Of a DNA stretch of 64,000 nt, positions 616 to 23,962 are shown piece by piece. The position numbers and the translations under genes were made by a program. The notes under the pieces are model-generated. The model saw nothing but the letters and a program-made list of their open reading frames with translations, did no database searches and was not told the DNA's origin. The DNA is from a virus, in the IMG/VR virus record IMGVR_UViG_3300028840_006907, positions 320,001-384,000 of that record; one strand, written 5' to 3'. Position 1 is the stretch's first letter; each line of letters opens with the position of its first letter.

Positions 616-623
616 TTAATTCC

Positions 624-4765: not shown

Positions 4766-4788
4766 TTTATTCCTCTAATTTAAATATG

Positions 4789-5337: not shown

Positions 5338-5344
5338 TTTTTTC

Positions 5345-5842
5345 TCACTCTGTCCTTGTTATGTTGTAAACTTCAGTTTTTATCTTATCTAATTTTTTAA
5401 GAGTATCTTTTAAATTTTTCTCTATATCAAAGATTTCTTTCACAAATACTTCACTAGCGTTATATTGACCTTTTTTTATTTGCATTATAGCTATTTGTCT
5501 ATGTTCCGGTTCTGAAAGTACAAGAACGGTATTATCAGGAATTTTTCTTGAAATTATAACAGTAGCTCCCCACATATAACCCATAATACCATTTCTTATA
5601 GATTCTTTTCTTGTCTCCATATCAATTGAATCTTTACAAAATTTTCTAATATCAACATAAGATCTAGAATTCATTAAAACTTCATTTACTCTATTTTCAT
5701 GTTTTTCTATTTCTGCAAATCCATCAGCTAAAATATCGGGTATAAAATTAGGAATAGGGCTTTTAATAATTTTCCTAATATTTAATGACTTGATGAATTC
5801 TTCATATTCTATGTCTTTTAATTCTTTCGATAGGTATGCCAC
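5345..5842 (-). CDS. hypothetical protein
   Basis: 165-aa ORF in operon. Confidence 0.4.
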   Translation of the reverse strand: MAYLSKELKDIEYEEFIKSLNIRKIIKSPIPNFIPDILADGFAEIEKHENRVNEVLMNSRSYVDIRKFCKDSIDMETRKESIRNGIMGYMWGATVIISRKIPDNTVLVLSEPEHRQIAIMQIKKGQYNASEVFVKEIFDIEKNLKDTLKKLDKIKTEVYNITRTE

Positions 5843-6393
5843 TATTCATCCCCTTTAAAGATAGTATCTAAAAGTGAACCTTTATTATCCGATAATATGC
5901 AATTTTCGAAATAGGTTTTGAAAGATAAAGCATTTATTAATCGTTGAAAATCGACTCTTATTATTTTAAAGAAATAGTCATAAGCACAAGATGGGCATAT
6001 ATGATATATTTCAGGTTTTCCAGAGTTTTCTGAAACAATATCATATTTAATACATGTACTCTTAGCAGGGATATTACATCCTTTGATAGAACATTTTTGA
6101 GCCCATTCAATTATCTCTATGAATACTCTTCCTTTTTCACCATTATAGAAATTTGTGTAGAAAGGATTTATTTTCATATAAGTAATAGGGAATATATTAT
6201 ATACAGTAAGAACCGTATGGGGCTCTTTCATTGTTGCATCGATATCTTCTGAATTTCGTGAAATATATAATTCAGAGTCACATTGCATAATTTCTTTAGC
6301 CTTATTTTTATCACTAGTGGCTATTACTACTCTGTATGAGAAATTCAAAAGATTATCAAAATATTTATCAGTTGTAAATACTTCTAAATTCAT
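5842..6393 (-). CDS. hypothetical cysteine-containing protein
   Basis: 183-aa ORF with several Cys (CNIPAKSTC, CPSCAYDYF). Confidence 0.4.
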   Translation of the reverse strand: MNLEVFTTDKYFDNLLNFSYRVVIATSDKNKAKEIMQCDSELYISRNSEDIDATMKEPHTVLTVYNIFPITYMKINPFYTNFYNGEKGRVFIEIIEWAQKCSIKGCNIPAKSTCIKYDIVSENSGKPEIYHICPSCAYDYFFKIIRVDFQRLINALSFKTYFENCILSDNKGSLLDTIFKGDE

Positions 6394-6731
6394 TATAATC
6401 CTAATCTTTTAATAGTATGAGCTATATTTGGGAAATCCTCTTTTAATATATTAAATTGATTTTTACTATATGCTTTGATTTCGGTTGCTTCAGGAGCTAT
6501 CCAAATTTGAGCACCCCATATTTTTGCACAACATCCTTTTTCAAAACGTTCCTTATTTTTTTCAAAATCAAAAAAATTGTATACTTCTCTTGCGTAAAAC
6601 CAGTCTTGTGGGCCTATAATTATATGATCAACTTCTTCTTTAGCGCTTCGTATTTTTGAAAATATCTGTCCAAAATATCCGATTATATCTTCTTCATTCA
6701 TTTTTTTTAAAATTGACATGTCTACTCCCAT
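6393..6731 (-). CDS. hypothetical protein, tandem paralog A
   Basis: 112 aa; C-terminal APEATEIKAYSKNQFNILKEDFPN matches the neighbour's IEEATEVKVYHEGNFSDMKKDFPN. Confidence 0.4.
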   Translation of the reverse strand: MGVDMSILKKMNEEDIIGYFGQIFSKIRSAKEEVDHIIIGPQDWFYAREVYNFFDFEKNKERFEKGCCAKIWGAQIWIAPEATEIKAYSKNQFNILKEDFPNIAHTIKRLGL

Positions 6732-7081
6732 CGTACTTTTTGTAATAATAGATTGTTAGGGAAGTCTTTTTTCATATCACTGAAATTTCCTTCGTGGTAA
6801 ACTTTGACTTCAGTTGCTTCTTCAATTAATAATACAGGGGTTTTCCATAGGAAACCCACTAGTCCATCTTGAGAGTGTTCATGTTTTTCGATAGAGTCGG
6901 TGTCTAAATATTCTCTGATACCTGATAAGGATGTGAGATAATCCCAATCAATTCGATTTATTATCATATAGCGTGGTTTTTTCTCTTGTCTGATAAAGAG
7001 CAAAGAGATGTGATTAATTACTTTATTCTTTTTAGTATTTTTATTACCGGTTTTTCCAGCGATTTCTTTTAAGCTTGGCAT
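6722..7081 (-). CDS. hypothetical protein, tandem paralog B
   Basis: 119 aa; shares the EATE-K-Y...DFPN motif with 6393-6731. Confidence 0.4.
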   Translation of the reverse strand: MPSLKEIAGKTGNKNTKKNKVINHISLLFIRQEKKPRYMIINRIDWDYLTSLSGIREYLDTDSIEKHEHSQDGLVGFLWKTPVLLIEEATEVKVYHEGNFSDMKKDFPNNLLLQKVRWE

Positions 7082-7084
7082 TTA

Positions 7085-7759
7085 CTATTCCCGGTAAAAA
7101 GGTGGAAAGGAAACCCAATCTTTCATTCCTTTTAGAACGAGTCCATCTACATCTACCTGCATTCCTCCTACTATTTGGATCATGGGTTTGAACTTTTCAC
7201 AAATTCTTTTTATAAATCGGAAATCATGTTCAGGTTCATGTCTCCAAGGTTCTTCGATGGCCCATTCTCTTTTTACTATATAACAAGGAGTACCTACGTG
7301 GCATATGATAGGAAACATATGAATATCAATTTCAGGAACAAGAACAATTGTCTCGGGATCTCCATCTTTATACATCCGGGATTGCTGACATGACATCTGT
7401 ACTATACCAATCATGTTGTCACGGCAATTTGAGATGAGTGTTTCGAGATAAGTATCTTTGTAACGATCATCATCATCACAAAATACTAGGTATTGTCCCC
7501 GAGAAATTTTTATACCGTGATTTCGTGGTTTCGTTCCTGGAGAGATATCCATATTACCGTAATCTTTTTCGATATTACAGAATTGTGTCCAGGGTCCAGC
7601 AGTTTTCATTAAGTTAATGACATCTACAGGAGGTGGTCCATCATATACTATTATATGTTCAAAATTTTTAAAAGTTTGGTTTTTGAAATCGTTAAGTAAA
7701 TTTGATAGTTCTCTTACACCGCGAGAAGCAGGGGTAATAACACTGATAGTTGGTCCCAT
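7085..7759 (-). CDS. GT2-family glycosyltransferase-like protein
   Basis: 224 aa; N-terminal ISVITPASRG...FEHIIVYDGPPP resembles the GT2 N-terminal region; CDDDD acidic cluster. Confidence 0.5.
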   Translation of the reverse strand: MGPTISVITPASRGVRELSNLLNDFKNQTFKNFEHIIVYDGPPPVDVINLMKTAGPWTQFCNIEKDYGNMDISPGTKPRNHGIKISRGQYLVFCDDDDRYKDTYLETLISNCRDNMIGIVQMSCQQSRMYKDGDPETIVLVPEIDIHMFPIICHVGTPCYIVKREWAIEEPWRHEPEHDFRFIKRICEKFKPMIQIVGGMQVDVDGLVLKGMKDWVSFPPFYRE

Positions 7760-8011
7760 TTTGTCTCCAAGCCAATTTTAAAAAAGATAAATAAAAATTA
7801 GGTCTCATCATAGTAAAAAATATTAAAAGAATATTAAAATACCCTTTACATGCCATATAAATACTTTTTTCTTTTAGAAGTCCTTATAGTCCAGTAGGTT
7901 ATATATCAATTTAATTATCTTTTAATACAAAATTCCTTTGTATAGATCTAAATTTTCTTTAAAATAGAGATATTAAATTCAAATCTAAATCAAATAGTGA
8001 AAGGATTCCTA
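7760..8011. promoter_or_regulatory. divergent intergenic promoter region between minus-strand operon and plus-strand block
   Basis: ~250-bp AT-rich non-coding gap between divergently oriented gene blocks; several TATAAT-like boxes. Confidence 0.3.
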
Positions 8012-9475
8012 ATGGTAACAGAGTTTACAAAAGGCAAAAATCAAAAATTTGTAGCAACTATATCCTTCAGTCTTAATTGGGATGATAGAGATATTAAATC
8101 TATTAAGATAAAAGAGGGTCAGGAACTTTTCTATGATGGTGAAGTAGCTACTGTAGAAAATGGTGCTGGACAAGTAAAAGGTCGGTGTATGGGGTTAAAA
8201 TCAGCCATTAATGTTATGAATTGGTTGGTTCCTGTGGAAAATGGGGGGTCTTCAAAAACTCCTGAAGTACCAAAAATAGTTAGTGATAGTTTATTTGAGA
8301 ATGATGATTATAAACCAGGAATAGGTGGAAATCTTGACACTTATATCGAACGAACTAATGAAATTGGTGGGAAACGAGAAATTATCAAGGAAGAAGATTT
8401 GATTGTTAAAACTGTCTCACCTATTAATAAGAGAGAAGAGCAACCTAAGAAAGGAAAATTGGAAATAGCAGGAGATCAAGTTGAAGTCCCTAAAGACCGC
8501 CTTTTAGTAAGTAGTACCACTATAAGAACAAAGTCGAGTAAAAGAGATGTCACAATAACCAGAGCTGATGAAATGGGAGCTGATTCGGTACAACCTCTTA
8601 AAAAGGTTAAAGGAACAACTGCTAAAAAAGAAAAGAAAAAAAGTTTTACAGTTGATGATACTACTCCAAGACAAATTCATGAAGATATGAAATTGGATGA
8701 GATCCATCGTATCACTAAAGTTGTAAATGCTGATGAGTCTCAAGATGCTAAAGTTGTAAAGAAAATCGATAGATCTAAAGTAGAAGTCAAAGAAATTGAG
8801 GGAGTTACATTAAAGAGAACCGATTCTCCAAAAGATGTTAAGTTTAATAAAACAACTTCTCCTACTGAAGTTTCTATAAAAACTACTGTTGGTTCTGGAA
8901 GTAATTATTCCGCAGGAGATCAAGGTGGTGTGGTTGTAGGTAGATCTAAAGTTGCTAAAACTGGAGTTGAGAAAAAAGGTCAAGATTTAATTGATGATAT
9001 TTTTGAGGAAGCTCCAGTAATTACTGAAGAGGAAAAACAAAAACAAGCTAAAAAATTAGCTGAGAGAACAAAAAAAGCCCAAGAACGAGCGGCCAGCAGG
9101 AAAAAAAGTTCTAAAGAAACACAGAAAATGATGGAAAAGGAGAAAGAAGTTCAGAATGTAGAAGTTGAAATCCCTGCTGATAAGGCACCTGATCTTATTG
9201 AAGAAGTAAAAGCAGATGATTTAACAAAAATTACATCAGTGGAAATAGATGGTGATTTAACTGAAATAACTTCTGTAAAAGAAGATACTGTTGATTATCT
9301 ATTAATGTTGCCCGATAATTGGAACAAACTACATTGGGTAAAGAAGGAAAAATTTATAAAAGAAGTAACAGATGCTTCCTTTATAAGGTTTATTCTTTCT
9401 ATGGAAATAACCAAAGCAGTCAGAAATGCTTGTTTAGAAAGGTTAGAAGAACTTGGACAGAAAGAGTCAGGCTAA
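8012..9475 (+). CDS. lysine/glutamate-rich hypothetical protein (possible scaffold or internal structural protein)
   Basis: ORF track begins at a GTG at 7997; in-frame ATG at 8012 has a GAAAGGA RBS upstream. Highly charged low-complexity sequence. Confidence 0.5.
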   Translation: MVTEFTKGKNQKFVATISFSLNWDDRDIKSIKIKEGQELFYDGEVATVENGAGQVKGRCMGLKSAINVMNWLVPVENGGSSKTPEVPKIVSDSLFENDDYKPGIGGNLDTYIERTNEIGGKREIIKEEDLIVKTVSPINKREEQPKKGKLEIAGDQVEVPKDRLLVSSTTIRTKSSKRDVTITRADEMGADSVQPLKKVKGTTAKKEKKKSFTVDDTTPRQIHEDMKLDEIHRITKVVNADESQDAKVVKKIDRSKVEVKEIEGVTLKRTDSPKDVKFNKTTSPTEVSIKTTVGSGSNYSAGDQGGVVVGRSKVAKTGVEKKGQDLIDDIFEEAPVITEEEKQKQAKKLAERTKKAQERAASRKKSSKETQKMMEKEKEVQNVEVEIPADKAPDLIEEVKADDLTKITSVEIDGDLTEITSVKEDTVDYLLMLPDNWNKLHWVKKEKFIKEVTDASFIRFILSMEITKAVRNACLERLEELGQKESG

Positions 9476-11231
9476 ACGAATACTTGCGAATGTTGTCGAT
9501 TTTGATATGCATAACCTTTTTCCTCCACGAACCTTTATGGAGAATCTGGAAGATGCATCATCAGGAGAGTTTACATCTCAGCCTCAAAAAACTCTTAGGG
9601 AACGCCCTTATGGTACTCAACCATTAATGGTAACCCCTAAGTATGAGGGTGATTTCCTGAAAAAGTTACGGAAACCCGAACTAGAAGGCAAACCTGTAAT
9701 GCCTTTGGAAAATGTCGTGAATGTTTATGCTGCAAATCCAAATAATTTATGGGATTTCAGTATGCCTTCTGAATGGTTAAAACATCAGGAACGGCCTTTT
9801 CCCCGTAACCTCGTGGATCTCTATTATGAAACAAATAGGCCAGGTGAGGGTGTTGGAGAAAAAACTCTTGATGAATACCATGATCGGGGTTGGGATGCAG
9901 ATGATGCTCCTGAAATGTCAGAAGACAAACCTATTCGTAGAGGACCTTTTCCTGGGAAACCTTTAAAAGTTCCTTTTCATTCGGCATCAAAAAGAGTGGT
10001 GGCGTCATATTTATCTGAGTTTACGGAAAAAGATGAATGTTGTGGACCGAATGTAGGGATAGTTGTAGCATCATATTTAATGAATTGTGTTCCTTCTGAA
10101 TTTATTGTTAATTTTGAAAATATTAAAACCGCTATGTTATTAGAGGGGTTAGAAGAAAGTCGGATTGATAGTAAAACAAAAGGACTTCATAAATTAGAGA
10201 CTGGGGATGTGGTTGTAAGACCTTATAGAAATAGCCCTAAACAGGGTAAATGGATTTTTAAAACATTCTCAGGTCCAAGACCACCTGCAGCAATAGAGTG
10301 GCCTTATACTACAACTTTTGAGTTTATACCACATGGAAGAGAAAAACGAGTAAATAAACTTCATGTAAGAACGAGTTGCACTTGTCCTTCCTGGCTTTTT
10401 TGGGGTGCTCAATATAATGCTACTATGCAGGATTATAGGTATGGTCCTATAAGACCTAAGTTTGCTCCTCCTGACAAAAGAGATAAAAGGCGTAAGTTTT
10501 TAGCCTGTAAACATATCATAGCTTGTATTCCATATTTAGTTGGAACAGGACAACGTGGTAAATTTACCGATGAAGGTTTTTCTCTTCATATGATTGATGT
10601 TCCTGTAGAAAAGAGAAAACGGATCATAAAAGCTCCTAAATTTCAAATAATGAAAAAGGCTCCGATAGAAGAGTTAAGAATACCCCAGGAATTAATGAAA
10701 GCAGGTAAGAAGCCTGAAGTAAGATCTATTGTTTCTGAGTGGAAAACTGCTACTCCGCGTTTAAGAAAATCCATGTTGAAAAAGTTGGATGATGTTCAGG
10801 ATGTCTCTTACATAGCTCATAGGTTTCCTGAATCAGCTACTCATTTAGTTGCTGAGAGATTGAAGGAAATTGGTGATAAGACAAAACAGATGGATGTCAA
10901 GAAAGATGCGGTGGAGGAAATAAAAGTAATAGAGAAGATTGAGGATAAAGTTGAAAAAGCTCTTCCAGAAGTTCCGGCTGAATTGAGTCATTTTGAAGAT
11001 GATGAGAAGATCCAAAATTTATTAAAGGACATTAAAGAAACTCCTGGTTGGGAAAGAAAAAGTACACTTTTGAAGGAACAGGATGATGCTGATGCTCTTG
11101 CATATATGGCAATAGCTTTATATCGAGAGGATTTTGATGAAAGTGTTAATATTATCCTTGAAAAATTAAGTGATATGGTTAAGGAAAAGGGTGATCCAAA
11201 AGCCAAGAAATGGTCGGAGTATATTTATTAA
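9453..11231 (+). CDS. hypothetical protein with SWIM-type zinc finger
   Basis: 592 aa; CTCPSW...CKHIIAC fits the CxCxnCxH SWIM pattern. Start uncertain (TTG at 9453 or ATG at 9507). Confidence 0.5.
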   Translation: MDRKSQAKRILANVVDFDMHNLFPPRTFMENLEDASSGEFTSQPQKTLRERPYGTQPLMVTPKYEGDFLKKLRKPELEGKPVMPLENVVNVYAANPNNLWDFSMPSEWLKHQERPFPRNLVDLYYETNRPGEGVGEKTLDEYHDRGWDADDAPEMSEDKPIRRGPFPGKPLKVPFHSASKRVVASYLSEFTEKDECCGPNVGIVVASYLMNCVPSEFIVNFENIKTAMLLEGLEESRIDSKTKGLHKLETGDVVVRPYRNSPKQGKWIFKTFSGPRPPAAIEWPYTTTFEFIPHGREKRVNKLHVRTSCTCPSWLFWGAQYNATMQDYRYGPIRPKFAPPDKRDKRRKFLACKHIIACIPYLVGTGQRGKFTDEGFSLHMIDVPVEKRKRIIKAPKFQIMKKAPIEELRIPQELMKAGKKPEVRSIVSEWKTATPRLRKSMLKKLDDVQDVSYIAHRFPESATHLVAERLKEIGDKTKQMDVKKDAVEEIKVIEKIEDKVEKALPEVPAELSHFEDDEKIQNLLKDIKETPGWERKSTLLKEQDDADALAYMAIALYREDFDESVNIILEKLSDMVKEKGDPKAKKWSEYIY

Positions 11232-13113: not shown

Positions 13114-13410
13114 ATGGACGAAAATGAAATTATTACTGATGACAGTTTTGATGCTTCATCTGGCTATCAAACATGTGATTTATATTTGGCAGCTTTTTTT
13201 CTTTCTGCTGGATGTGAAATGATGAAATCAGTACGGAATAAGAGAACAAAAAGAGTTTATTTTCTTTTTGAAAAGAATCCAACACTGAAAGATTTAAAAT
13301 TAGATTACTTTAGCCGTAAAGCTAAAATTGATGCTTTAACATTTGCTGATAATGTGAAATCTCTTAAAAGTCTATGCCATAATATATCGACTATGAGGGA
13401 TATGAGTTAA
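13114..13410 (+). CDS. hypothetical protein
   Basis: 98-aa ORF with ATG start. Confidence 0.4.
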   Translation: MDENEIITDDSFDASSGYQTCDLYLAAFFLSAGCEMMKSVRNKRTKRVYFLFEKNPTLKDLKLDYFSRKAKIDALTFADNVKSLKSLCHNISTMRDMS

Positions 13411-13427
13411 ATCTAAAAGGGGGCATA

Positions 13428-13598
13428 AATGGCTACCACTATTGTAAATCAAGAAAGAGAAAAGGTGATTTCTCCTACTCTAGGAGATAAAATGTCTTCA
13501 TCAGAGCCTAGTGTTTATTATGTTACACATAAATGGGTTCTTGATTCTACGAGCAATGTGCCTGTTGGTACTCAAGTCGAAATAAGTTTTCCTTCTTA
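13428..13598 (+). CDS. small hypothetical protein (56 aa), absent from ORF track
   Basis: ATG preceded by AAAAGGGGG RBS; fills an otherwise unexplained gap between 13410 and 13614. Confidence 0.3.
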
Positions 13599-13613
13599 AA
13601 AGGTTTATAATAT

Positions 13614-14051
13614 ATGTTGCTAAATGATTTTGTTCGAGTTGTCAATGCAGCGAAAAAATTCAAAATAAAAGATAAATTTGAATTTATTTCGTTTGATGAT
13701 ATTACTCATGAAACAGGTGGATTGAAAGATGATCCCGAAAGTATTGAAATTTGGGCTGCTGTAAAAATCTTTTATGAAGGCGAACTCCCCGATAGTTATA
13801 AAGCACTCAATCTTATTATCGGGGATTGGGTAGAAAAGAATAAAAGTGAATTAACAAAAGTCCTTCATTCTGAATTGAAATATCACTTTAAAGAAAAATA
13901 TAAAGACAGTGATTCGGAAGAACTGGATAAACTTGATGATTCAGCTATATGGGCGGATCAACTAGATTATATGCCTGCTACAGTTGAAGGTGAAAAAGCA
14001 TTAATGATTGAAATTGAACTTGTTCTTCACGCTGAACCTATCGAGGAATAA
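13614..14051 (+). CDS. acidic hypothetical protein
   Basis: 145-aa D/E-rich ORF. Confidence 0.45.
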   Translation: MLLNDFVRVVNAAKKFKIKDKFEFISFDDITHETGGLKDDPESIEIWAAVKIFYEGELPDSYKALNLIIGDWVEKNKSELTKVLHSELKYHFKEKYKDSDSEELDKLDDSAIWADQLDYMPATVEGEKALMIEIELVLHAEPIEE

Positions 14052-14053
14052 TT

Positions 14054-14431
14054 ATGAGGAAATCTAATGAATCTACTGATAGAGCATGTAATGCTGTTGT
14101 TGACTATATAGATGAAGGATCATTATACTCTGCCGGTAGATTGGTTATTTATCGGCAAGATTCTAGTGTCATGTCAATTCATAGCCTTTCTGATCCAGCA
14201 TGTATAGACTCAACTGATGGGACCGCAGTATTTAATACTATCTATGATGCTACAGCTATGCTAGACGGTACAGCAACAACATTCGATGTATTAAATAAAG
14301 ATGCAAGTAATGTCTTTGATGGAAGCGTATCCTTAACAAATGGCTCAGGTGATCTGAAATTACCTGCTACAACCATATATCAGGATTCCACCATTAATAT
14401 CTCATATGCCTTTTACTCTGTCCCACGGTAA
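14054..14431 (+). CDS. hypothetical protein
   Basis: 125-aa ORF, tight spacing. Confidence 0.4.
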   Translation: MRKSNESTDRACNAVVDYIDEGSLYSAGRLVIYRQDSSVMSIHSLSDPACIDSTDGTAVFNTIYDATAMLDGTATTFDVLNKDASNVFDGSVSLTNGSGDLKLPATTIYQDSTINISYAFYSVPR

Positions 14432-14437
14432 GGTCCT

Positions 14438-15013
14438 ATGGATATTTATGACGGAAAACTATCCCTTGTTGATAGTACCCATATTAGTGAATTTATAGGG
14501 AGTATTACTCTTACTAGTTCTCTTCGACTTGTTGATACCACTCATACCGTTTCCCTTACTGGGTATGTCTTAAATGACTCAACTTATCTCCCTGGTGATG
14601 CTACCTTTGCTCAAGGCAGTGAGCTAACTTCTGCTGATATGACGGTTGTCTTTGCTGACTGGACATATGCTCACGGTGTTCCGAATATTGATGGTACCCT
14701 TGTAGATGGGACTTTAGGTTATAGATGGTTTGATCCATATAGAATTCATTACAGTATTTATTATATGGATTATGATACCTCTGATTTTAATCTTATCGGA
14801 TATAGGTATCGAGAACCAGGTCGTCAAAATGTAGGTTTATATTTTGCCCCTATGATAGTAGGGCAACCTGGTCATTACGAAAATAGATGGGTATATCAAA
14901 GAGAAGTATTGGGCTATTCTCAAGAAATAAGACAAAAATTTACTTCTATGTCCAGTGGCCTGGACGCTATGAGAGATTACCCAGTGGATTCCACTAGTGG
15001 TGACAGTACGTAA
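14438..15013 (+). CDS. hypothetical protein
   Basis: 191-aa ORF. Confidence 0.4.
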   Translation: MDIYDGKLSLVDSTHISEFIGSITLTSSLRLVDTTHTVSLTGYVLNDSTYLPGDATFAQGSELTSADMTVVFADWTYAHGVPNIDGTLVDGTLGYRWFDPYRIHYSIYYMDYDTSDFNLIGYRYREPGRQNVGLYFAPMIVGQPGHYENRWVYQREVLGYSQEIRQKFTSMSSGLDAMRDYPVDSTSGDST

Positions 15014-15027
15014 ATGGAGGATTTAAA

Positions 15028-15807
15028 ATGAAAATATCGAATTTAACTTTAGAACTTGATAAAATAGCGGATGAAATCCAGGTCCAGGATCCTACTATAG
15101 CCCTTGCTATTGATAAAATATCTGATGCTTTGGAGAATCCTAAAAAGAAAATCGATCCTTCAACTTTAACAGATGAACAAATTAAAAAGATGAAAGTTCA
15201 TCTTAGAGTCAGAACTGCTCGATATGTTATTAGTAGTGAAACTTTGCATATGTTAAAGGAAGCAGGTCTTAAGGAAGATTTTGATAAAATATTCAGTAAA
15301 GGTAAAGCCACATGGTTTAATTTATGGAATAAAATTAAAGATAAAACTCTTATGGCTGAAATAAAAGCTTTAAATTCTGTCCATGCTATCAAAGAATTCC
15401 TTAAAAAAAATCCTGCAATGAAATGGACTGTATTAAGTGCTATTGCCTTAGGTCTCATATCTTTGCCTTTGGCAGCGAATGTCGATATCATATCTCCAAG
15501 TAATTTAATTGATCTTGTCACTAGTATCGATATTGATATAGTGATGGATCCATCTGGATTCCCTTCTCTTGAAATCACTATTGATGATTCATGGATACAG
15601 GAAGTAGCTCAAGAAAGTATGATGGATGCAAAATCTAAAGAGCAGTTAAAATCCAATCTTAAAGATAGTCTTATGGAGATTTTAACTGAAAAGTATGAAA
15701 GAAGTCCTTTGAAAAAAGTTATTAAAAAAGAACAGATAATTCCACATCTCCAACGAATTATTAAAGAGCAATTATGGCCAAAAATTTTAAAATATTTAGT
15801 TATATAA
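15028..15807 (+). CDS. hypothetical membrane-associated protein
   Basis: 259 aa; GGAGGA RBS; hydrophobic segment WTVLSAIALGLISLPLAANV. Confidence 0.45.
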   Translation: MKISNLTLELDKIADEIQVQDPTIALAIDKISDALENPKKKIDPSTLTDEQIKKMKVHLRVRTARYVISSETLHMLKEAGLKEDFDKIFSKGKATWFNLWNKIKDKTLMAEIKALNSVHAIKEFLKKNPAMKWTVLSAIALGLISLPLAANVDIISPSNLIDLVTSIDIDIVMDPSGFPSLEITIDDSWIQEVAQESMMDAKSKEQLKSNLKDSLMEILTEKYERSPLKKVIKKEQIIPHLQRIIKEQLWPKILKYLVI

Positions 15808-15822
15808 TAAAGGAGATATAAG

Positions 15823-15966
15823 ATGCCTACTAGAAAAGTTTATGGTGGTAAAAATTATGATTGGAATTATGGTAGAACCAGAGATGATTTAAAAGCTGAA
15901 GCAAAATGGAAAGAATCAAAAGACCGGAAAGAACGTCAAGAACAAGACAAAAGAAATAAGAAATAA
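15823..15966 (+). CDS. small basic hypothetical protein (47 aa), absent from ORF track
   Basis: AAAGGAG RBS then ATG; K/R-rich; stop directly abuts the next gene's ATG at 15967. Confidence 0.3.
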   Translation: MPTRKVYGGKNYDWNYGRTRDDLKAEAKWKESKDRKERQEQDKRNKK

Positions 15967-16536
15967 ATGTTTTATAGAAGAGAATTAATTGATCTAAATT
16001 CTAGTGAAGGAAAGACTCTAATGGAATGTATGTTGCCAGGTTGTCAGGGCAATGAGTTTAAAGAGACTGTTGCCAATAGATTAAGAAAAGTCTCACGGAT
16101 ACTTAAGGCTCAATTCTATGACATCGATCCTGAAATGCTCCTGAGACTATATCAGGATTATCTCGAAGAAATGCCTGATAATTGGAATTATATCCTTCCA
16201 CCTGAACTTAATGAAATTATAAAAAGTGGTCAGGCTAGTAATTATTTTCTACTTGATATTCGGAAACCTGAAGATTTTCAGGAAGTTCGTATACCAGGTA
16301 CAGTAAATATCTATTGGCAAGATGTATTGAAAAAAGAAAATTTAAATAAATTGCCTATTGATAAAGAAATAATAATTATTTGTTATCTTGGTCATACAAG
16401 TTCTCAGATCTTGGTTATTTTGTCCACATTAGGTTACCGTTGTAGATCTCTGAAGTTCGGGATGGGTAAAAGTCCCGATGTAAAAGTACTTATAAAGGGT
16501 TGGTTGGATTATAATTTCCCAGTGATAAAACAATAG
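15967..16536 (+). CDS. rhodanese-like domain protein
   Basis: 189 aa; IIIICYLGHTSSQ matches the rhodanese active-site loop (CxxGxxS) after a hydrophobic strand. Confidence 0.55.
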   Translation: MFYRRELIDLNSSEGKTLMECMLPGCQGNEFKETVANRLRKVSRILKAQFYDIDPEMLLRLYQDYLEEMPDNWNYILPPELNEIIKSGQASNYFLLDIRKPEDFQEVRIPGTVNIYWQDVLKKENLNKLPIDKEIIIICYLGHTSSQILVILSTLGYRCRSLKFGMGKSPDVKVLIKGWLDYNFPVIKQ

Positions 16537-16543
16537 ATTTATT

Positions 16544-17032
16544 ATGAATAAGCAATCGTTTAATAAAGAAAATGTTACAGAACTTCTTAGTCAATTGAAA
16601 AAAGTAGTTAATCGGGATTTGGGTGATGAATATAATCAGGAATTAATAGAATTAAGTAGGAAAATAGACCGAAATTTTAAAAAGAGAAAATTAGTAATGC
16701 GGGTGGCTTCTAATTTTTTAAAAACTATTCTTGCTACAATGGCATATAGTACTCATGGTAAATGGTCACCTTCAAAAGAGATTTATAAAACTGAAAAAGA
16801 ACGTGGTAATAAAGTTGATAAACTTCTTTTACAAGAAAATTATGACGCTATTTGGGTATGCCCTAAACCAGAAGATTGTGTAAGATATAATAGAAGTAGT
16901 GATGAAGAAGATGATCCTGTAACACAGGAAGAAATTGATGAACTCGTCAAAGTCAATTTGAGTGGAGCTACACACGTAAAATCTATGGATGATGGTGATG
17001 GCGGGGAATTATGGATTAGAAAGGCAAAGTAG
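16544..17032 (+). CDS. hypothetical protein
   Basis: 162-aa ORF between rhodanese-like and sulfotransferase-like genes. Confidence 0.4.
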   Translation: MNKQSFNKENVTELLSQLKKVVNRDLGDEYNQELIELSRKIDRNFKKRKLVMRVASNFLKTILATMAYSTHGKWSPSKEIYKTEKERGNKVDKLLLQENYDAIWVCPKPEDCVRYNRSSDEEDDPVTQEEIDELVKVNLSGATHVKSMDDGDGGELWIRKAK

Positions 17033-17610
17033 TGATTTGTTCTGATGAATATCAATTCATATTTTATGCAGTCCCTAAAACCGGTTCTCGATCCATGCAA
17101 AATTTTCTTCAACGTTACGGTCGTCGCTCTGTAACTGGCTGGTCACCTAATCATAATAATTATGAAGAAGTAAAAAGTGATGTAGGTATAGAAAAAAGTA
17201 ATAAATATTTTAAGTTTGCTTTTTTCAGAAATCCATGGGCTATGCTTGTATCCATGTATTTCTATAATATGCATATATGGGGACTAAATGCCAAAAAAGA
17301 TTCTGTTGTAAATTGGCTTAATACATATAAAGGCGGGGATCCTTATATTCCTTATATTTTTGATAATGAAGGAAATGCCATTTTGGATTTTATGGGTAAG
17401 TTAGAAAATTCCAGAGAAGATTTAAAAACTGTCTGTAAAATGTTAAAGATCCCGATCTCAGGAGAATTGTCCCATATAGGAAAACAACATGTAAAAGGAA
17501 GATTGGATTATAGAGCGTATTATGAAAGTCCAGTACTAGTGGAAAAAATAAGAAAGATATTTTCAAAAAGTCTTAGTGTGTTAAATTATGACTTTAATGA
17601 AGGGGTTTAA
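17032..17610 (+). CDS. sulfotransferase-family protein
   Basis: 192 aa; N-terminal AVPKTGSRS (5'-PSB-like) and FRNPWAMLVSMY (3'-PB-like) motifs. Apparent GTG start overlapping the upstream stop. Confidence 0.6.
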   Translation: MICSDEYQFIFYAVPKTGSRSMQNFLQRYGRRSVTGWSPNHNNYEEVKSDVGIEKSNKYFKFAFFRNPWAMLVSMYFYNMHIWGLNAKKDSVVNWLNTYKGGDPYIPYIFDNEGNAILDFMGKLENSREDLKTVCKMLKIPISGELSHIGKQHVKGRLDYRAYYESPVLVEKIRKIFSKSLSVLNYDFNEGV

Positions 17611-17715: not shown

Positions 17716-17765
17716 AATTTAAGTATATTAATTTCCCAGAGAGCATAACTAATGCAAAGAAGTTT

Positions 17766-17808
17766 AGGTTGTGGGACCAAGGTCAGGGTTCTGCAACCTA
17801 TTTTTTTA
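17766..17808 (+). terminator. terminator-like hairpin with T-tract
   Basis: AGGTTG ... CAACCT stem followed by ATTTTTTTAT; second of several hairpins in a 340-bp non-coding gap. Confidence 0.4.
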
Positions 17809-17949
17809 TCCTATAATACCTCCCATAATTTATGCCCATTAAAGAGGCCAGTAAAAATTTATTTTCTGGCATTTTTTGTAATAAACTTCTAATATCTGTA
17901 ACCTCCGATAAAGGGAAAGCGACTATTACCCTAAAAAGGAGGTCCGTTT

Positions 17950-18816
17950 ATGGACAAAAAATATGAAGACCGAATGCTTGTCGTTTTTATCTTAGTGGGT
18001 CTAGTTGGTGGGTCACTGTTCTATTTCCTTAAAGATGGTCAGCCTCTCAGCTCAATTTTCATGACTTTCGCTCTATCAAGTATCCTCTATCGATTCCTGG
18101 GTGGAATTGGCCAAGGCACAAAATTCAGTGTCGGAGCATTTCGGTTAGGTGGTAGTGCAGCCTTCATGATCGGCTGTATCTTTTTTATCAACGAGTACAT
18201 TTTCCCAAAACCAGAAATCAACACCATTGTTTTAAGTACTCCCCAGGATCGATGGGTTCCTGTTAAATACCCTACAGGTGAGTATGTGAATGTTAAGGTA
18301 TTAACTCCTTCTGGAGATACTATTATTCATGGTATAAGTAGTGTAGAAATGGATGCTTTAAAAAAAAGGGAATACTGCATCACAAAAGAAGGGGAGAATT
18401 TTTATATCTGTTCTAATGCTGATTCAACGGTAATAGGCCATCTTAAGTTTGAAGATGTTTTTAAAGCTATTGAAAATGATATCCATATCACAGTCCAAGA
18501 TTTTCGGGTTTTTAAATTATACCCTAATCCTATAAATGACCCAAAAGATCAAGAAAAGAAATATAAAACTACTGATTCACTTGATGCTGTAAGTCAGACT
18601 TTTCCCATAGTAATCGAAGTCGATAAAACTAATATGAATATAAAGACAAAGGATGACAGTTTATTAACATCAGATGTACCTCGTAGTGAAAAATTCTATT
18701 TAGTTGATATTGAAAATGAGTATTTTATAGTTACAATATTACATGCTAATTTAGAAACATCAGAAAGTAAATGGTATTCTGAGTTTCTTGTTGGAAAAGT
18801 ATCTATTAATCGATAG
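17950..18816 (+). CDS. hypothetical membrane protein
   Basis: 288 aa; AAAGGAGG RBS; ~3 N-terminal hydrophobic helices. Confidence 0.45.
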   Translation: MDKKYEDRMLVVFILVGLVGGSLFYFLKDGQPLSSIFMTFALSSILYRFLGGIGQGTKFSVGAFRLGGSAAFMIGCIFFINEYIFPKPEINTIVLSTPQDRWVPVKYPTGEYVNVKVLTPSGDTIIHGISSVEMDALKKREYCITKEGENFYICSNADSTVIGHLKFEDVFKAIENDIHITVQDFRVFKLYPNPINDPKDQEKKYKTTDSLDAVSQTFPIVIEVDKTNMNIKTKDDSLLTSDVPRSEKFYLVDIENEYFIVTILHANLETSESKWYSEFLVGKVSINR

Positions 18817-18823
18817 AGGTAAT

Positions 18824-19252
18824 ATGAGCAATATGAAAATTGCAATAGCTTCTTATATGCGTTATACAGTTGTTTTAGCCAACTTGAAAGAGCATTTCAA
18901 AAGAGAACTCGATCTAGCTGGCCTATTTGATAAAGACTCCGATTATAATGGAATGATAGGTAACGCTGTTATGGACCTGTGTAAAGTCTTCTCTGATCAG
19001 GGCCATAGCGGGTTCTCCGCGAACTGGGTTCTGAAATTGTTCGATACTCTTGGTCACTATAAAACGTTGACTCCTATTACAGATAATCCGAAAGAGTGGA
19101 TGAAGGTTACAGATGGCCTCGGTAGAGATGAACCGGTCTGGCAGAGTAATCGAAATCCTTCCCTTTTTTCTAATAATGGTGGAAAGAGTTATTATGATGT
19201 AGACGATAAGAAGCGTAAGAAGATCCGCTCTAAAAAGTTTAAAAAGAAATAA
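18824..19252 (+). CDS. hypothetical protein
   Basis: Track start 18788 is TTG; in-frame ATG at 18824 has an AGAGGT RBS. Confidence 0.4.
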   Translation: MSNMKIAIASYMRYTVVLANLKEHFKRELDLAGLFDKDSDYNGMIGNAVMDLCKVFSDQGHSGFSANWVLKLFDTLGHYKTLTPITDNPKEWMKVTDGLGRDEPVWQSNRNPSLFSNNGGKSYYDVDDKKRKKIRSKKFKKK

Positions 19253-19327: not shown

Positions 19328-19414
19328 ATTATATATAGTATCTATAGCTCTTTGAAATTGGTAGAAATTTACTGAATCCGTAAGCCCTTGATCTTATGAT
19401 ATTTATGTTTTAGT

Positions 19415-20311
19415 ATATTCCCCGCGTATGCGGGGCTGGGCCGATAAATCTTAAAATGGGTAAGATAAAAACCTGAATATTCCCCGCCCATGCGGGGCTG
19501 ATGCGTAATATAAATAATTTTTGATCAATTATAGGACATATTCCCCGCCCCTGCGGGGATTCCCCGAAAATATTGATGTTTTTTTGTATATATCAAAAAT
19601 ATTCCCCGCCCCTGCGGGGTTGATGCGAATACCGAACAAGTGCAGGGCCTGCAGATTATATATTCCCCGCGTATGCGGGGCTGGCGCGTAGGAGGTAAAA
19701 ATGAAATCGAAACATATTCCCCGCGTATGCGGGGCTGGTTCTAGAATTGAATGAAGCGCTGAATTTTCCCCGCCCATGCGGGGCTGAACCGACCGGGAAA
19801 TCATATCTATCCATAAATCTTGCATATTCCCCGCGTATGCGGGGCTGAACCGATACTAGATTGGGACATGTGTTTACCCAGAACATATTCCCCGCCCATG
19901 CGGGGCTGAACCGATTTCAAAAAACACGACCAGATAAAGATGAATATTCCCCGCGTATGCGGGGCTGTGTCAGGGTGAGAGGCTCGTGACGAATAATTTT
20001 TCATATTCCCCGACTCTTCGGGGTTGCCCCTCAGGAAGCTATTGAATTGCAAAAAACTGTATTCCCCGTCTATGCGGGGCTGTCTCTCCACATGCAAATG
20101 TAAGTAGTAAATACTGAATATTCCCCGGCATTCCGGGGCTGATCCCGTCTGGTAAAAACATAAAATGGTTCATCATAAGTATTCCCCGCCCATGCGAGGT
20201 TGGGCCATCCAGTACTGCTACTGCTAGGACCGTATTCCCCGCCCATGCGGGGCTGATCCTACGACTGGGACAGAAGTATTCATTGGTTTCACCCCGGCCT
20301 TTCCGGGGTCT
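19415..20311 (+). CRISPR. CRISPR-like array, 16 palindromic repeats with type I-E-like repeat sequence; non-canonical (degenerate 3' ends, variable spacing); no cas genes in window
   Basis: Consensus ATATTCCCCGCGTATGCGGGG(CTGAACCG) with repeat starts at 19415, 19477, 19538, 19599, 19660, 19714, 19764, 19824, 19885, 19944, 20003, 20059, 20118, 20179, 20232, 20288. Periods 50-62 bp (mode 61). Unique intervening sequences; AT-rich leader upstream; last repeat degenerate. Confidence 0.55.
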
Positions 20312-20409: not shown

Positions 20410-21315
20410 ATGGCAATTGCGTTTATGAGAGGAAGCACCACTAATCAGAATGATTTGACCATAACGGTACGTGATACATCCAATAATTTGATCGACCCGT
20501 ATTCGTTGGAGTATGCTGTCTTCGATTACACTAGTGGCACTGAGGTCCTCATCGGATCCCCTGTTAATACTCCGCTCAAGTTGTCAACAGGAGAATATTG
20601 GGCGGAGGTTGTAATAGCAGCCGATGCCAATATAGGTCTCTGGCGCATCCGTTGGACAATTCAAGAAACAGCAGTCAGTCCTGTTTATCAATCGGTTCAG
20701 GAATTTCAAGTAGTAGGTTCCAGTGTTGTGACGAGTGTAACCGGAGATGCAAATTTTGATGCATTGGTCCATTCTTTACGAGTGATACTCCGAGACAACA
20801 ATCCGGACCGCAACTACAGATTTCGTCCCCCAGCTTCCGAGAAATTTATCCAAGGTCAGACCCAAGTCTTTGGATTCATTTGGGAAGATGAAGAGCTTGT
20901 AGAGTATATATACATGGCTATTGACGACTTCAATTCACGCCCCCCGACTACAGGTATAGATGTGGCCAATCTTTGGGGAACTGAGAGACGGTGGAGAACT
21001 ACAATTATTTTAAGAGCAGCAGCTTTTGCATGTTTCGCTATAACAATGAATTGGATCGCTGACGAATTTTCTTATTCAATTTCTGGAGTATCTCTTGACA
21101 TTGAGAAATCTTCGAAGTATCAATCTATGAAAGAGAATTATATCAATGAATATGACAAGCTTGTCGAGGCCAATAAGAGATCCATAAAAATTATAAAAGG
21201 TCTTAGGCAATATCGGTACGGGGTGGGCATCACGAGCGCCCTGGGACCCATGAACAGACCTGGAGTTCAAAGTAGAAGAAACCTTATAAGTCCAAGTTAT
21301 GGCCCTTATTTCTAA
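20410..21315 (+). CDS. hypothetical protein
   Basis: 301-aa ORF with AAGGAAAAAG RBS. Confidence 0.45.
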   Translation: MAIAFMRGSTTNQNDLTITVRDTSNNLIDPYSLEYAVFDYTSGTEVLIGSPVNTPLKLSTGEYWAEVVIAADANIGLWRIRWTIQETAVSPVYQSVQEFQVVGSSVVTSVTGDANFDALVHSLRVILRDNNPDRNYRFRPPASEKFIQGQTQVFGFIWEDEELVEYIYMAIDDFNSRPPTTGIDVANLWGTERRWRTTIILRAAAFACFAITMNWIADEFSYSISGVSLDIEKSSKYQSMKENYINEYDKLVEANKRSIKIIKGLRQYRYGVGITSALGPMNRPGVQSRRNLISPSYGPYF

Positions 21316-21408: not shown

Positions 21409-23859
21409 TTATATTTTATTATTTTTTCTAAGGAGAGCTATCTGACGTTTAATCCATCGAGGAGTTTCTTCAAGAGTTTCAGCCATTTGATTTCTTGTCA
21501 TCTTTCCACGATTATCTATTATGAATTGGAGCTTTTCTTCAGTCTTTCTATCTTTGGTACAACCAATAGGGTTTTTTGTAGATAATGTACCTTTTTTTTG
21601 TAAGAATTTTATTTGAGATTTAACCCATCGCTCTGTTTCATTGAGAGCTTTAGATAATTCTTTTTTAGTTTTATTTTTATAATTAGTGATTATATACTGC
21701 GTTTTTTCAGGGGTTCTTCTACATTTTGTTGAGAATTTAGAAATCTCTTTTAAATAGGTAAATTTCTCAGTGGGTTGTTTAATATTTATATCTTCAATAC
21801 ATTTTGAATTATATATTTCTTTTTCTCTTTTAGGATAAGGTTTAGTAACATAATTTTTTAATTTGTTAATTTTTTTCTTATCTCTTTTATTTTCACCTAT
21901 TAATAAGACATATTTATGTTTTCTTTCAGTAATAAATTTTTGAGCTTCAGATAATATATTTTTATTCCAATTATTCCATTGAACTTTAATTCCTTCTGGT
22001 ATGGTACTCATATTTTTAAAACCATTTTCTTTAAACCATTCCTTTTGAGAAATAATCCCTTGATTTTTACACCATTTTTTAAATGCTGATGTACGTTTTA
22101 GAGATTGAGCTGAAAAAGTCCTATTATTTTTAATGGAAGGATGTTTATATAAGTATGAACTTCCAAAGTTATTTCCTAGATAATCAAATCCACAAGCTTG
22201 GTAAATAGTCCCTATTTCAAGAGCTTTAGGATCAGCATAACCTATGAAAGCTCTTTTAGAAGTGTTATTAGCCATCCAATTACAAGCAAACCTTATAAGA
22301 CGGCTACCCAGGTTTTTCGGGGTCCATGAGGCAGTGGCACCTCTTTGAATTAAAGCTTCATATTTGGGAGTATCTTTACCTAGAATTTTGGAATATGCTG
22401 TGGGTTCATTTATAAATAATACTCCTGCGAGAATATTATTGTATCTGGCTGTGAAGCACCATTTTGGTATTACTCCAATTGTTCCTAACCATTCATATTT
22501 TTTTATAAATTGGACCATTTCATTATTAAATTTTTCTTCAGATAATGTAAAAGAAGTAGCTTTTAAAGAAGAGTGATTGAAATCGATATTTTTTTTATCT
22601 TCATCAATCCATTGAAGTTTCTTTTTATATTGGTGGCATATAAAAGTGGTCTTGTTTTTACTGTTAATTTTATTTTTTATTAAATCAATGATAATACCTT
22701 TTCGGATAGCTTCTTTTACATCATCAGACCAAAATCTAATCAAATTGGGTATATTTTTATTTTGGATTTCATCATTCTTAATATTTTCTTTTATTTTTAA
22801 TGCCCTTGGAGACGTATCATTTTCTCTTATTTCTTTACCATGCCAATAATTACCATCATATTGTACCCATAAGTTATAGCGAGGCATATAGAAATCAATT
22901 ACATGTTTAATAATTGGGTGCATAACTTGATGTTCTACAAAAGGATCAAATACAATAAGATAATTAAAAAAGTTATTTTCTTCATCTGAGGATGAGAAGG
23001 AATTATTTAGTTTAACTGTTTTATATGTTTTTTCTTTTATTTCAACATTCTGTTGGGGATTTTCAACGCCATATCTTTCAATATTAGTTTCAGTGATTTT
23101 TTTCTTAATCTCTGGAGATTGGAATACATTGTCAACCCCGTATCTTGATTGTACTGTTACTTTAACTTTTCTTTTTACTTCTTTAGATTGAGAGGGGTAT
23201 TCTACTCCTCGTTTTTCAATATTAGATTGACGGGATTTTTCTTTCATTGAGTTTAGTTGAGTAGAATATTCTACGCCATAACGTTTTTTAATAGTTTCGT
23301 TATTATGTTTAACTATATCTTCATTTATTTTATCTCGATTCCTTCTTAATCCTAGTTTAATAGCTCTTTCTCGGATGGCTTTCCAGGTCCTGTTTTCAAA
23401 GTAGAGCATAATAAATTCCATAGAATTCTTTTCATATACTTCTTTTAAAAGATCATCTTCTTTGGGTGACCAGAAGTCTTCCCTAGCAGGAGCGCTTTTA
23501 CCACCATCAATCATTTCTTGTTTAATTATTTCAGGATTTCTTTGAAGGTTTAATTTTTGAGCATTACTTCGGATGCTTTGCCATGATCGATTCTTGAATT
23601 TAGAAAGGATAAATTCTTTTGAATTATTTTCATATATATTTTTAAGAATATTTATCTCTTCGGTTGTCCAGGAATCTTTTCTTGGTCCTCTTTTTTTACG
23701 GTCTTCATTTATAAGGTCAGGATTACGGTGAAGATTTAGCTTACGTGCTTTTCTACAGATGGTTGTCCAAGATTTATTTAATTTGGAGATAATAAATTCT
23801 TTTGAATTATTTTTATATATTTCTTTTAATAAATTTTCTTCTTCTATTTTCCAACGCAT
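21409..23859 (-). CDS. multidomain hypothetical protein: N-terminal triplicated helical repeats, YGV(E/D)N repeats, possible Vsr/PD-(D/E)xK-like nuclease core
   Basis: Start set at second Met (MRWKIEE) with AAGAGG RBS; track start is 23916. Three ~50-aa repeats (SWTTEEINILKNIYENNSKEFI...); three RYGVxNxxQ repeats; VIDFYMPRYNLWVQYDGNYWHG resembles a Vsr/DUF559-type core. Only minus-strand gene in the plus-strand block. Confidence 0.5.
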   Translation of the reverse strand: MRWKIEEENLLKEIYKNNSKEFIISKLNKSWTTICRKARKLNLHRNPDLINEDRKKRGPRKDSWTTEEINILKNIYENNSKEFILSKFKNRSWQSIRSNAQKLNLQRNPEIIKQEMIDGGKSAPAREDFWSPKEDDLLKEVYEKNSMEFIMLYFENRTWKAIRERAIKLGLRRNRDKINEDIVKHNNETIKKRYGVEYSTQLNSMKEKSRQSNIEKRGVEYPSQSKEVKRKVKVTVQSRYGVDNVFQSPEIKKKITETNIERYGVENPQQNVEIKEKTYKTVKLNNSFSSSDEENNFFNYLIVFDPFVEHQVMHPIIKHVIDFYMPRYNLWVQYDGNYWHGKEIRENDTSPRALKIKENIKNDEIQNKNIPNLIRFWSDDVKEAIRKGIIIDLIKNKINSKNKTTFICHQYKKKLQWIDEDKKNIDFNHSSLKATSFTLSEEKFNNEMVQFIKKYEWLGTIGVIPKWCFTARYNNILAGVLFINEPTAYSKILGKDTPKYEALIQRGATASWTPKNLGSRLIRFACNWMANNTSKRAFIGYADPKALEIGTIYQACGFDYLGNNFGSSYLYKHPSIKNNRTFSAQSLKRTSAFKKWCKNQGIISQKEWFKENGFKNMSTIPEGIKVQWNNWNKNILSEAQKFITERKHKYVLLIGENKRDKKKINKLKNYVTKPYPKREKEIYNSKCIEDINIKQPTEKFTYLKEISKFSTKCRRTPEKTQYIITNYKNKTKKELSKALNETERWVKSQIKFLQKKGTLSTKNPIGCTKDRKTEEKLQFIIDNRGKMTRNQMAETLEETPRWIKRQIALLRKNNKI

Positions 23860-23962
23860 ATGAGTACCTCTTTTTAGTATATTACTTATTATAACAGGTA
23901 TTAGAGTTATTGTCAATATTTCATTTAATAAATATGGAATTCATTAATTTATAGGGAAAAAG

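Follow-up and report, generated by a model that had tools for sequence, protein, structure and literature searches.

Rhodanese and sulfotransferase genes in a hypervariable island of a huge phage

Rhodaneses carry sulfane sulfur as a persulfide, and sulfotransferases that depend on 3'-phosphoadenosine 5'-phosphosulfate (PAPS) move a sulfuryl group at the oxidation state of sulfate. A six-residue Cys loop is typical of sulfur-transferring rhodaneses such as GlpE, and a CX5R loop of the Cdc25-type phosphatases. Proteins of the sulfotransferase family are present in Ralstonia phage phiRSL1, roseophage SIO1 (gp5.1), several cyanophages and Stenotrophomonas phage DLP6, with PHROG 3347 as the phage protein family, as well as in pithoviruses and mimivirids. 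The function of phage sulfotransferases is still unclear (PMC10580990); in the literature we found descriptive mentions as auxiliary genes but no functionally characterised phage enzyme. Rhodanese genes have been reported on viral contigs as auxiliary genes and interpreted as support for sulfur metabolism (PMC8226683, PMC7300365). Here we describe a locus at 15967-17610 of a 64,000-nt stretch of viral DNA (IMG/VR record IMGVR_UViG_3300028840_006907, positions 320,001 to 384,000; hereafter the window), where a rhodanese gene and a sulfotransferase gene flank a gene for an orphan protein of 162 residues. The original prediction considered the two enzymes a sulfur-transfer and sulfation pair. Comparison with sister phages indicates that, most likely, these are separate accessory enzymes that work independently of each other.

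As predicted, three open reading frames (ORFs) lie on the plus strand, at 15967-16536 (rhodanese, 189 residues, PF00581), 16544-17032 (the family-less orphan, 162 residues) and 17032-17610 (sulfotransferase, 192 residues, PF03567). The gap between the rhodanese and orphan genes is 8 nt, and the GTG start of the sulfotransferase gene overlaps the orphan stop codon by one base. Upstream, a plus-strand ORF of 47 codons (15824..15966), also called as a gene in the near-identical contig L092, has a stop codon that abuts the rhodanese start (TAA-ATG) and connects the run to co-directional genes further upstream. Downstream, a terminator-like hairpin on the plus strand (17765..17810; 14-bp stem with six G-C pairs, then seven T) starts 155 nt past the sulfotransferase stop codon and probably ends the transcription unit. 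Because of the abutting ORF, the 8-nt gap, the one-base overlap and the hairpin, the three genes are read from the sequence as the end of a long rightward transcription unit whose co-directional genes extend through 13114-15807.

The rhodanese matches PF00581 with 39.5 bits against a gathering cutoff of 22.2 (E 8.4e-10). Ahead of its single rhodanese domain lies an N-terminal extension of about 55 residues that is specific to the clade. The active-site loop is C139-Y-L-G-H-T144, six residues long and followed by S-S-Q, and in alignments of 16 homologs C139, Y140, G142, H143, T144, S146 and Q147 are invariant, so that the rhodanese-type Cys loop noticed originally is borne out. No Arg is present at position +6, unlike in the seven-residue CX5R loop of the Cdc25/Acr2 phosphatases. 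We conclude from these features that the protein is a single-domain rhodanese in which the six-residue loop is intact. It resembles GlpE and PspE of E. coli in having one rhodanese domain and a six-residue loop starting with Cys (CYHGNS in GlpE, CYLGHT here), and its profile matches in the PDB are rhodanese domains, including PspE at 32 bits. It differs from both in the extra N-terminal extension, in the motifs DNWNY and LKFGMG, and in its scores, which for the GlpE and PspE equivalogs (NCBIfam NF001195 and NF007627) are 19.8 and 23.2 bits where 102 would be needed. The NCBIfam family NF045521 (rhoda_near_glyco) gave 27 bits against a cutoff of 145, and the score for MoeZ/MoeB was also far under the NCBIfam cutoff. 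With scores so far under the cutoffs, the protein was placed in none of these groups. In catalysis, Cys139 would form a persulfide and pass its sulfane sulfur to a thiophilic acceptor, in a process unrelated to sulfation.

The alignments define a rhodanese subfamily with the signature DNWNY ... CY[LV]GHT[SA]SQ ... LKFGMG. The subfamily is rare. It is found in the phage subclade of the window, on a giant-virus-like contig (L007, which also bears cyclin, KilA-N, Ras/Arf and ankyrin genes), on a bacterial contig (L006/L099), and in a handful of metagenome-assembled genomes of Candidate Phyla Radiation (CPR) bacteria and DPANN, which are episymbiotic archaea. Eight loci were found in 185,579 species genomes, no tblastn match was obtained in 50,697 GenBank phage records, and no PHROG family corresponds to the subfamily. 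A whole-library profile search with the alignment was dominated by tandem-rhodanese proteins, so that its 205 representatives at E<=1e-30 set no more than a rough ceiling for the size of the subfamily. Two members (P0025 and P0027) have an N-terminal membrane anchor, and in a third (P0024; L089, 2133-2876) the rhodanese is fused at its N-terminus to a small protein of about 111 residues (ECNDTEG...GNIGHSFD...WDGDGAD) that in sister phages often lies between the rhodanese and sulfotransferase genes. In two CPR loci (Patescibacteria L093, 5920-7318; Saccharibacteria L098, 1124-2486) the rhodanese gene is directly followed by that of a 305-residue SIR2_2-like protein. Between the two loci this second protein is 68.5% identical, and its Pfam match is marginal in both, at 25.8 and 23.8 bits where the cutoff is 24.5. 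The earlier viral rhodaneses (PMC8226683, PMC7300365) are likewise rhodanese-domain genes carried by viral contigs, but they rest on KEGG or Pfam labels alone, whereas here a subfamily is defined that is conserved in a huge-phage clade and common to CPR/DPANN genomes and a giant-virus-like contig. The combination of sulfur transfer and sulfation had been thought unusual for a virus; this holds for the rare rhodanese subfamily, but not for the enzyme kinds as such, as sulfotransferases are a common possession of phages and giant viruses, and viral rhodaneses have been reported before.

The sulfotransferase matches Sulfotransfer_2 (PF03567) with 38.6 bits against a gathering cutoff of 22 (E 1.7e-9), over residues 2-77 only, and PHROG 3347 over its full length. 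PF03567 is also the precomputed label of 16 of its 17 homologs. The alpha/beta sulfotransferase fold is thus supported by a profile above its curated threshold. In an alignment of 16 homologs of 52-62% identity, five residues of the 5'-phosphosulfate-binding (5'-PSB) loop P15-K16-T17-G18-S19-R20 are invariant (P15, K16, T17, S19 and R20), and G18 is kept in at least 90% of the sequences. In the 3'-phosphate-binding (3'-PB) motif, which aligns with RNPKDxxVS of SULT7A1, R66, P68 and S74 are invariant. His41 is invariant as well and, in a weak alignment to SULT7A1 (E 0.18), pairs with the PTHL His, which makes it the candidate catalytic His. The 5'-phosphosulfate would then be bound by Lys16 together with the PSB loop and the 3'-phosphate by Arg66 and Ser74, with His41 as the probable base. 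We regard the protein as a minimal sulfotransferase of about 190 residues that has the fold and every PAPS-binding and candidate catalytic residue expected of an active enzyme.

Compared to the solved structures of SULT7A1 (5x2b), StaL (2ov8), 3-OST-5 (3bd9) and TPST1 (5wri), the phage protein is about 60-100 residues shorter and only 12-18% identical, and sequence-level searches of the PDB gave no significant match. The length difference suggests that the acceptor-binding cap is minimal and mostly missing. The homologs, in 17 clusters, make up a closely knit clade seen only on metagenomic contigs of huge phages; a scan of IMG/VR with the alignment gave no relatives, and among GenBank phages there were two weak tblastn matches, the nearest proteins being 25-26% identical. 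The described phage proteins of PHROG 3347 and PF03567 (from DLP6, phiRSL1, SIO1 and cyanophages) are alike in size (about 190-220 residues), full-length profile match, PAPS motifs, fold and status as an uncharacterised accessory gene. The clade of the window differs by its low identity to these proteins, its restriction to metagenomic huge phages and its position, which is nearly always beside a homolog of Tad3. The label galactose-3-O-sulfotransferase attached to PHROG 3347 should not be transferred, since no match to PF06990 was obtained even at E up to 1. In DLP6 the homolog is located among small early hypothetical genes. Distant homologs of 22-27% identity on bacterial metagenome contigs (L022-L088) lie in a recurrent cluster with a fusion of about 670 residues (tetratricopeptide repeats (TPR) and Sulfotransfer_3/1) and an Asp/Arg beta-hydroxylase of about 330 residues; among 137 neighbour proteins the hydroxylase family was counted 32 times and Sulfotransfer_3 29 times.

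The three genes sit in a hypervariable island of accessory genes between a conserved 191-residue gene (14438..15013, plus strand) and a gene resembling that of a head-tail connector protein (20410..21315, plus strand). On the left, the island is preceded by a conserved block with homologs of 13614-15013. Homologs of the 191-residue protein with about 50% identity are encoded directly before the island in sister loci L001, L002, L004, L009-L012, L019 and L020, and the equivalent in L090 was inferred from position and gene size. On the right, the connector-like protein is 75-81% identical in sister phages. In the window and L092 the island encodes proteins of 259 and 47 residues, the rhodanese, the orphan, the sulfotransferase, a hydrophobic 288-residue protein and Tad3, followed by a CRISPR-like array. 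L001 has 96- and 337-residue proteins, rhodanese, a 99-residue protein, the 111-residue protein, sulfotransferase and Tad3, and L004 has a 72-residue protein, rhodanese, the 111-residue protein, sulfotransferase, a C39 peptidase and Tad3. The order in L009-L012 is rhodanese, 62- and 86-residue proteins, the 111-residue protein, sulfotransferase and Tad3, while in L020 three small ORFs lie between rhodanese and sulfotransferase. In L090 a 200-residue protein encoded on the minus strand separates the two; in its region 5070-10970 the sulfotransferase gene is followed by two small ORFs and genes for two family 4 glycosyltransferases (GT4), an Acetyltransf_6 (FemAB-like) protein, a 174-residue protein and a large protein with an FGE-sulfatase domain.

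Other sister islands bear only one of the two genes. Rhodanese is absent from L002 (Tad3, sulfotransferase), from L019 (sulfotransferase, the 111-residue protein, a 73-residue protein, Tad3) and from L015, L018 and L021. The islands of the latter three encode a family 2 glycosyltransferase (GT2), a sulfatase-family protein (26.8 bits), a 734-residue protein with InlB B-repeats, a 91-residue protein, two tandem S-adenosylmethionine (AdoMet) decarboxylase paralogs, the sulfotransferase, a small ORF and Tad3; the region concerned in L021 is 1758-6491. L104 has rhodanese and Tad3 without sulfotransferase; between them lie a 138-residue ORF and the gene of a 519-residue protein that by eye resembles a CCA-adding/HD enzyme. 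The island is restricted to a narrow subclade: 80 further IMG/VR loci were fetched through the connector protein, independently of the sulfotransferase, and scanned with hidden Markov models for sulfotransferase, rhodanese, Tad3 and the 111-residue protein, and only the closest one, L104 (connector 74% identical), had any of the four genes.

The middle gene is not a constant part of this arrangement either. The orphan is not kept between rhodanese and sulfotransferase in the sister phages, where unrelated genes, often that of the 111-residue protein, which the window lacks, take its place. BLASTP and profile-profile comparison revealed no homology between the orphan and the small proteins at the equivalent position, and the string DGDG that they have in common is coincidental. 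The 162-residue protein was rightly called an unknown: it has no family match in profile libraries including Pfam, PHROG, NCBIfam and PADLOC, and only three homologs were found among 5.8 billion proteins. Its N-terminal half is helical; the conserved part is the C-terminal alpha/beta domain, about 95 residues long, which ends with KSMDDGDGGELW. A structure model of moderate confidence gave no informative matches.

The gene maps argue for independent enzymes. Both genes are present in six of the 11 lineages (window/L092, L001, L004, L009-L012, L020 and L090), the sulfotransferase alone in four (L002, L019, L015 and L018/L021) and the rhodanese alone in one (L104), so this is not an obligate module, whose two genes would always accompany each other in related genomes. 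Outside the clade no rhodanese of this subfamily was encoded within 8 kb in 67 distant sulfotransferase loci, no sulfotransferase of this type lay near the rhodanese in eight cellular loci of its subfamily, and a search of the literature gave no link between the two enzymes. A functional pair is unlikely because of this separate occurrence, the unconserved middle gene, the lack of co-occurrence outside the clade and the differing chemistry of persulfide and sulfuryl transfer. That the rhodanese gene repeatedly precedes the sulfotransferase gene is most readily accounted for by inheritance from a common ancestor within a single island.

What the sulfotransferase may act on is suggested by its residues and its surroundings. 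The conserved cofactor and catalytic positions, together with the lack of a signal peptide or membrane segment evident by eye, point to an enzyme that would act in the cytoplasm with host-made PAPS and O-sulfate an acceptor. The acceptor would most probably be a carbohydrate, either a precursor of an envelope glycan of the host or a product of the phage's own glycosyltransferases. Carbohydrates are the likeliest acceptor class because PF03567 is a family of carbohydrate sulfotransferases, because sister islands bear glycan genes, and because the phage has a glycan operon of its own. In the sister islands the two GT4 genes, the acetyltransferase gene, the GT2 gene and the sulfatase-like and FGE-sulfatase-domain genes are in the same run as the sulfotransferase gene and within about 5 kb of it; in L021 the GT2 and sulfatase-family genes lie about 3-5 kb upstream in the same run. 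The transferase operon that was seen upstream in the window is real. It occupies 1-7759 on the minus strand and encodes Methyltransf_4, a GT10 fucosyltransferase-like protein, an FkbM methyltransferase, a 684-residue fusion of a methyltransferase and GT2, a second GT2 and several unknowns, which brings the glycan-building genes to two GT2, one GT10-like and three methyltransferase genes. We take it to be reminiscent of the multi-domain glycosyl- and methyltransferases of chloroviruses. Glycan sulfation, which was part of the original prediction, is plausible from the gene content, and the sister islands speak for it more than does the operon of the window.

In view of the above, we tentatively favour a reading, to which we give slightly less than an even chance, in which independent enzymes are encoded in a variable island of a huge phage, the sulfotransferase O-sulfates a probably carbohydrate acceptor in the cytoplasm with host PAPS, and the rhodanese serves an unrelated process. 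Several observations weigh against it. The glycosyltransferase operon of the window is on the opposite strand at a distance of 8 kb, and glycosyltransferase neighbours are found in only two of the 10 sulfotransferase-bearing lineages, so that adjacency within the island may be incidental. The most constant neighbour of the sulfotransferase gene is not a glycan gene but that of the anti-defence protein Tad3. Its distant bacterial homologs lie beside TPR-sulfotransferase fusions and Asp/Arg beta-hydroxylases rather than glycosyltransferases, and the next gene in L004, for the C39 peptidase, hints at a peptide substrate. The PF03567 match covers the PAPS-binding N-terminal 77 residues and carries little substrate information. 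The search for PAPS genes proposed earlier gave no Pfam family of PAPS synthesis or PAPS reduction in the large majority of window ORFs of at least 90 codons, with those set aside that only overlap a longer one on either strand, but it covered just 64 kb of a genome that has another 300-400 kb. Finally, the lineages were found through the sulfotransferase, except for L104, which biases the co-occurrence frequencies. Counter-defence and peptide sulfation were kept as alternatives because of the Tad3 neighbour, the C39 peptidase of L004, the distant bacterial cluster and the early-gene setting in DLP6.

The first alternative is that one or both enzymes are factors for counter-defence or host takeover in an anti-defence island, for example by sulfating a host immune signal or protein, or by depleting PAPS and raising 3'-phosphoadenosine 5'-phosphate (pAp). 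We consider this unlikely. The window encodes a homolog of Tad3, of the type I Thoeris inhibitor family (18788..19252, plus strand; PF25185, 113.8 bits, and synteny), and Tad3 inhibits Thoeris by binding the TIR protein ThsB (PMC13402655). In eight of the 10 sulfotransferase-bearing lineages the Tad3 gene adjoins the sulfotransferase gene or lies within two genes of it, even where the order is inverted (L002). The two AdoMet decarboxylases of L021, a Mom-family protein and the CRISPR-like array in the island or its flanks could be taken in the same way, as could the early position of the DLP6 homolog and, with their marginal scores, the SIR2_2-like proteins encoded directly after the rhodanese in the two CPR genomes. 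However, being neighbours in a hypervariable island counts for little, glycan genes are present in it too, and PADLOC models gave nothing significant for the Mom-family protein and nine proteins from the island and its flanks. We know of no case in which an enzyme of either kind serves against host defence, and the literature searches gave none.

A single pathway, in which the rhodanese, the sulfotransferase and possibly the orphan form a sulfur relay that feeds or completes sulfation, is decidedly unlikely. It would account for the tight packing and co-transcription of the genes and for the constant order, rhodanese then sulfotransferase at 0.5-1.2 kb, in the six lineages that have both. Both enzymes also do sulfur chemistry, and the 111-residue protein that often separates them is fused to the rhodanese in P0024. 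Yet we know of no pathway that joins persulfide chemistry to that of a PAPS sulfotransferase. The five lineages with one gene alone and the variable gene between the two speak against a relay, and the two were never found together outside the clade in the loci and records searched.

Just as unlikely is the option that the sulfotransferase modifies a peptide or protein, for example on tyrosine, of the phage or its host. The C39 peptidase beside it in L004 and the setting of the distant bacterial homologs are compatible with such a role, which competes with the carbohydrate-sulfotransferase character of PF03567 and the glycan genes of the sister islands. A bolder proposal combines several of these elements: the island would be a hotspot for counter-defence and host-surface remodelling, where the sulfotransferase, almost always linked to Tad3, sulfates a host molecule important for immunity or adsorption (a receptor or envelope glycan, perhaps even a signalling nucleotide), and the rhodanese, of a subfamily that in CPR/DPANN genomes can be encoded beside SIR2-like genes, is a second, sulfur-based factor for host manipulation. 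It is doubtful, and we rate it as a long shot; if true, the sulfatase-like, FGE-like and glycosyltransferase genes of the sister islands would mark a phage toolkit for sulfated glycans. The hypervariable island and the absence of the genes from 79 of 80 wider relatives could suggest decaying passengers that no longer have a function, but this is highly improbable in view of intact reading frames, homologs of equal length, and cofactor-binding and catalytic residues that are invariant across many lineages at 50-60% overall identity.

The remaining features of the window describe the phage that carries the two genes. The same proteins are encoded on contigs of 388,651 and 469,617 bp, and the source is a huge phage of at least about 390-470 kb. 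This origin follows from the large contigs, the connector homolog, a weak tail-sheath match, Volactin and ThyX. In tblastn the connector-like gene matched gp165 of Bacillus phage G and, in Tunturiibacter phage Tunturi_5, a protein annotated as head-tail connector; near-identical DNA was not found among GenBank phages. ThyX (53614-55116, plus strand; 500 residues) was identified through two matched stretches, the actin-like Volactin (57217-58233, plus strand) with 216 bits, and a 933-residue protein (60157-62958, plus strand) has the weak, sub-threshold profile match to the C-terminal part of tail sheaths. Fibre-like proteins with a lectin fold are encoded as well. An 835-residue protein on the opposite strand just past the connector-like gene (21409-23916, minus strand) combines DUF7487, a domain of the Mom family of DNA-modification enzymes and weak helix-turn-helix matches. 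Between sulfotransferase and Tad3 lies the gene of the 288-residue protein with a hydrophobic N-terminus (17950..18816, plus strand), which has no Pfam match and among the loci compared is present only in this phage (window and L092).

The CRISPR-like array at 19406-20260 has 15 repeats with the core TATTCCCCGCGTATGCGGGGCTGA, which we take to resemble type I-E style repeats. The spacing is mostly 61 nt, with six intervals of 49-59 nt, and several copies have compensatory changes in the stem (CCCCGA/TCGGGG, CCCCGG/CCGGGG). No cas gene was found among the ORFs tested, and an Rfam scan of the window, array included, gave no family at gathering score. The minus-strand ORFs listed over 19406-20260 are repeat artefacts. 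In L104 (9001-11380) the connector-like gene has an insertion of about 440 residues after ...NWIADEFS, ending at ...LVHN|TYSISGVSLD, and in L016 and L018 it is also interrupted (pieces of 171 and 537 residues), while the copy in the window is uninterrupted. The boundary of the insertion may be intein-like, or the insertion may be that of a homing endonuclease.

Both genes add further members to known kinds of enzyme, and nothing in the analysis overturns current understanding. Its main value is that it keeps the two genes from being taken for a coupled sulfur pathway. It is a minor evolutionary oddity that the rhodanese subfamily occurs in huge phages, on a giant-virus-like contig and in CPR/DPANN genomes. 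The sulfotransferase, a compact enzyme of about 190 residues with conserved cofactor-binding and candidate catalytic residues in an island where its neighbours differ from phage to phage, is a reasonable entry point to the question of what phages sulfate.

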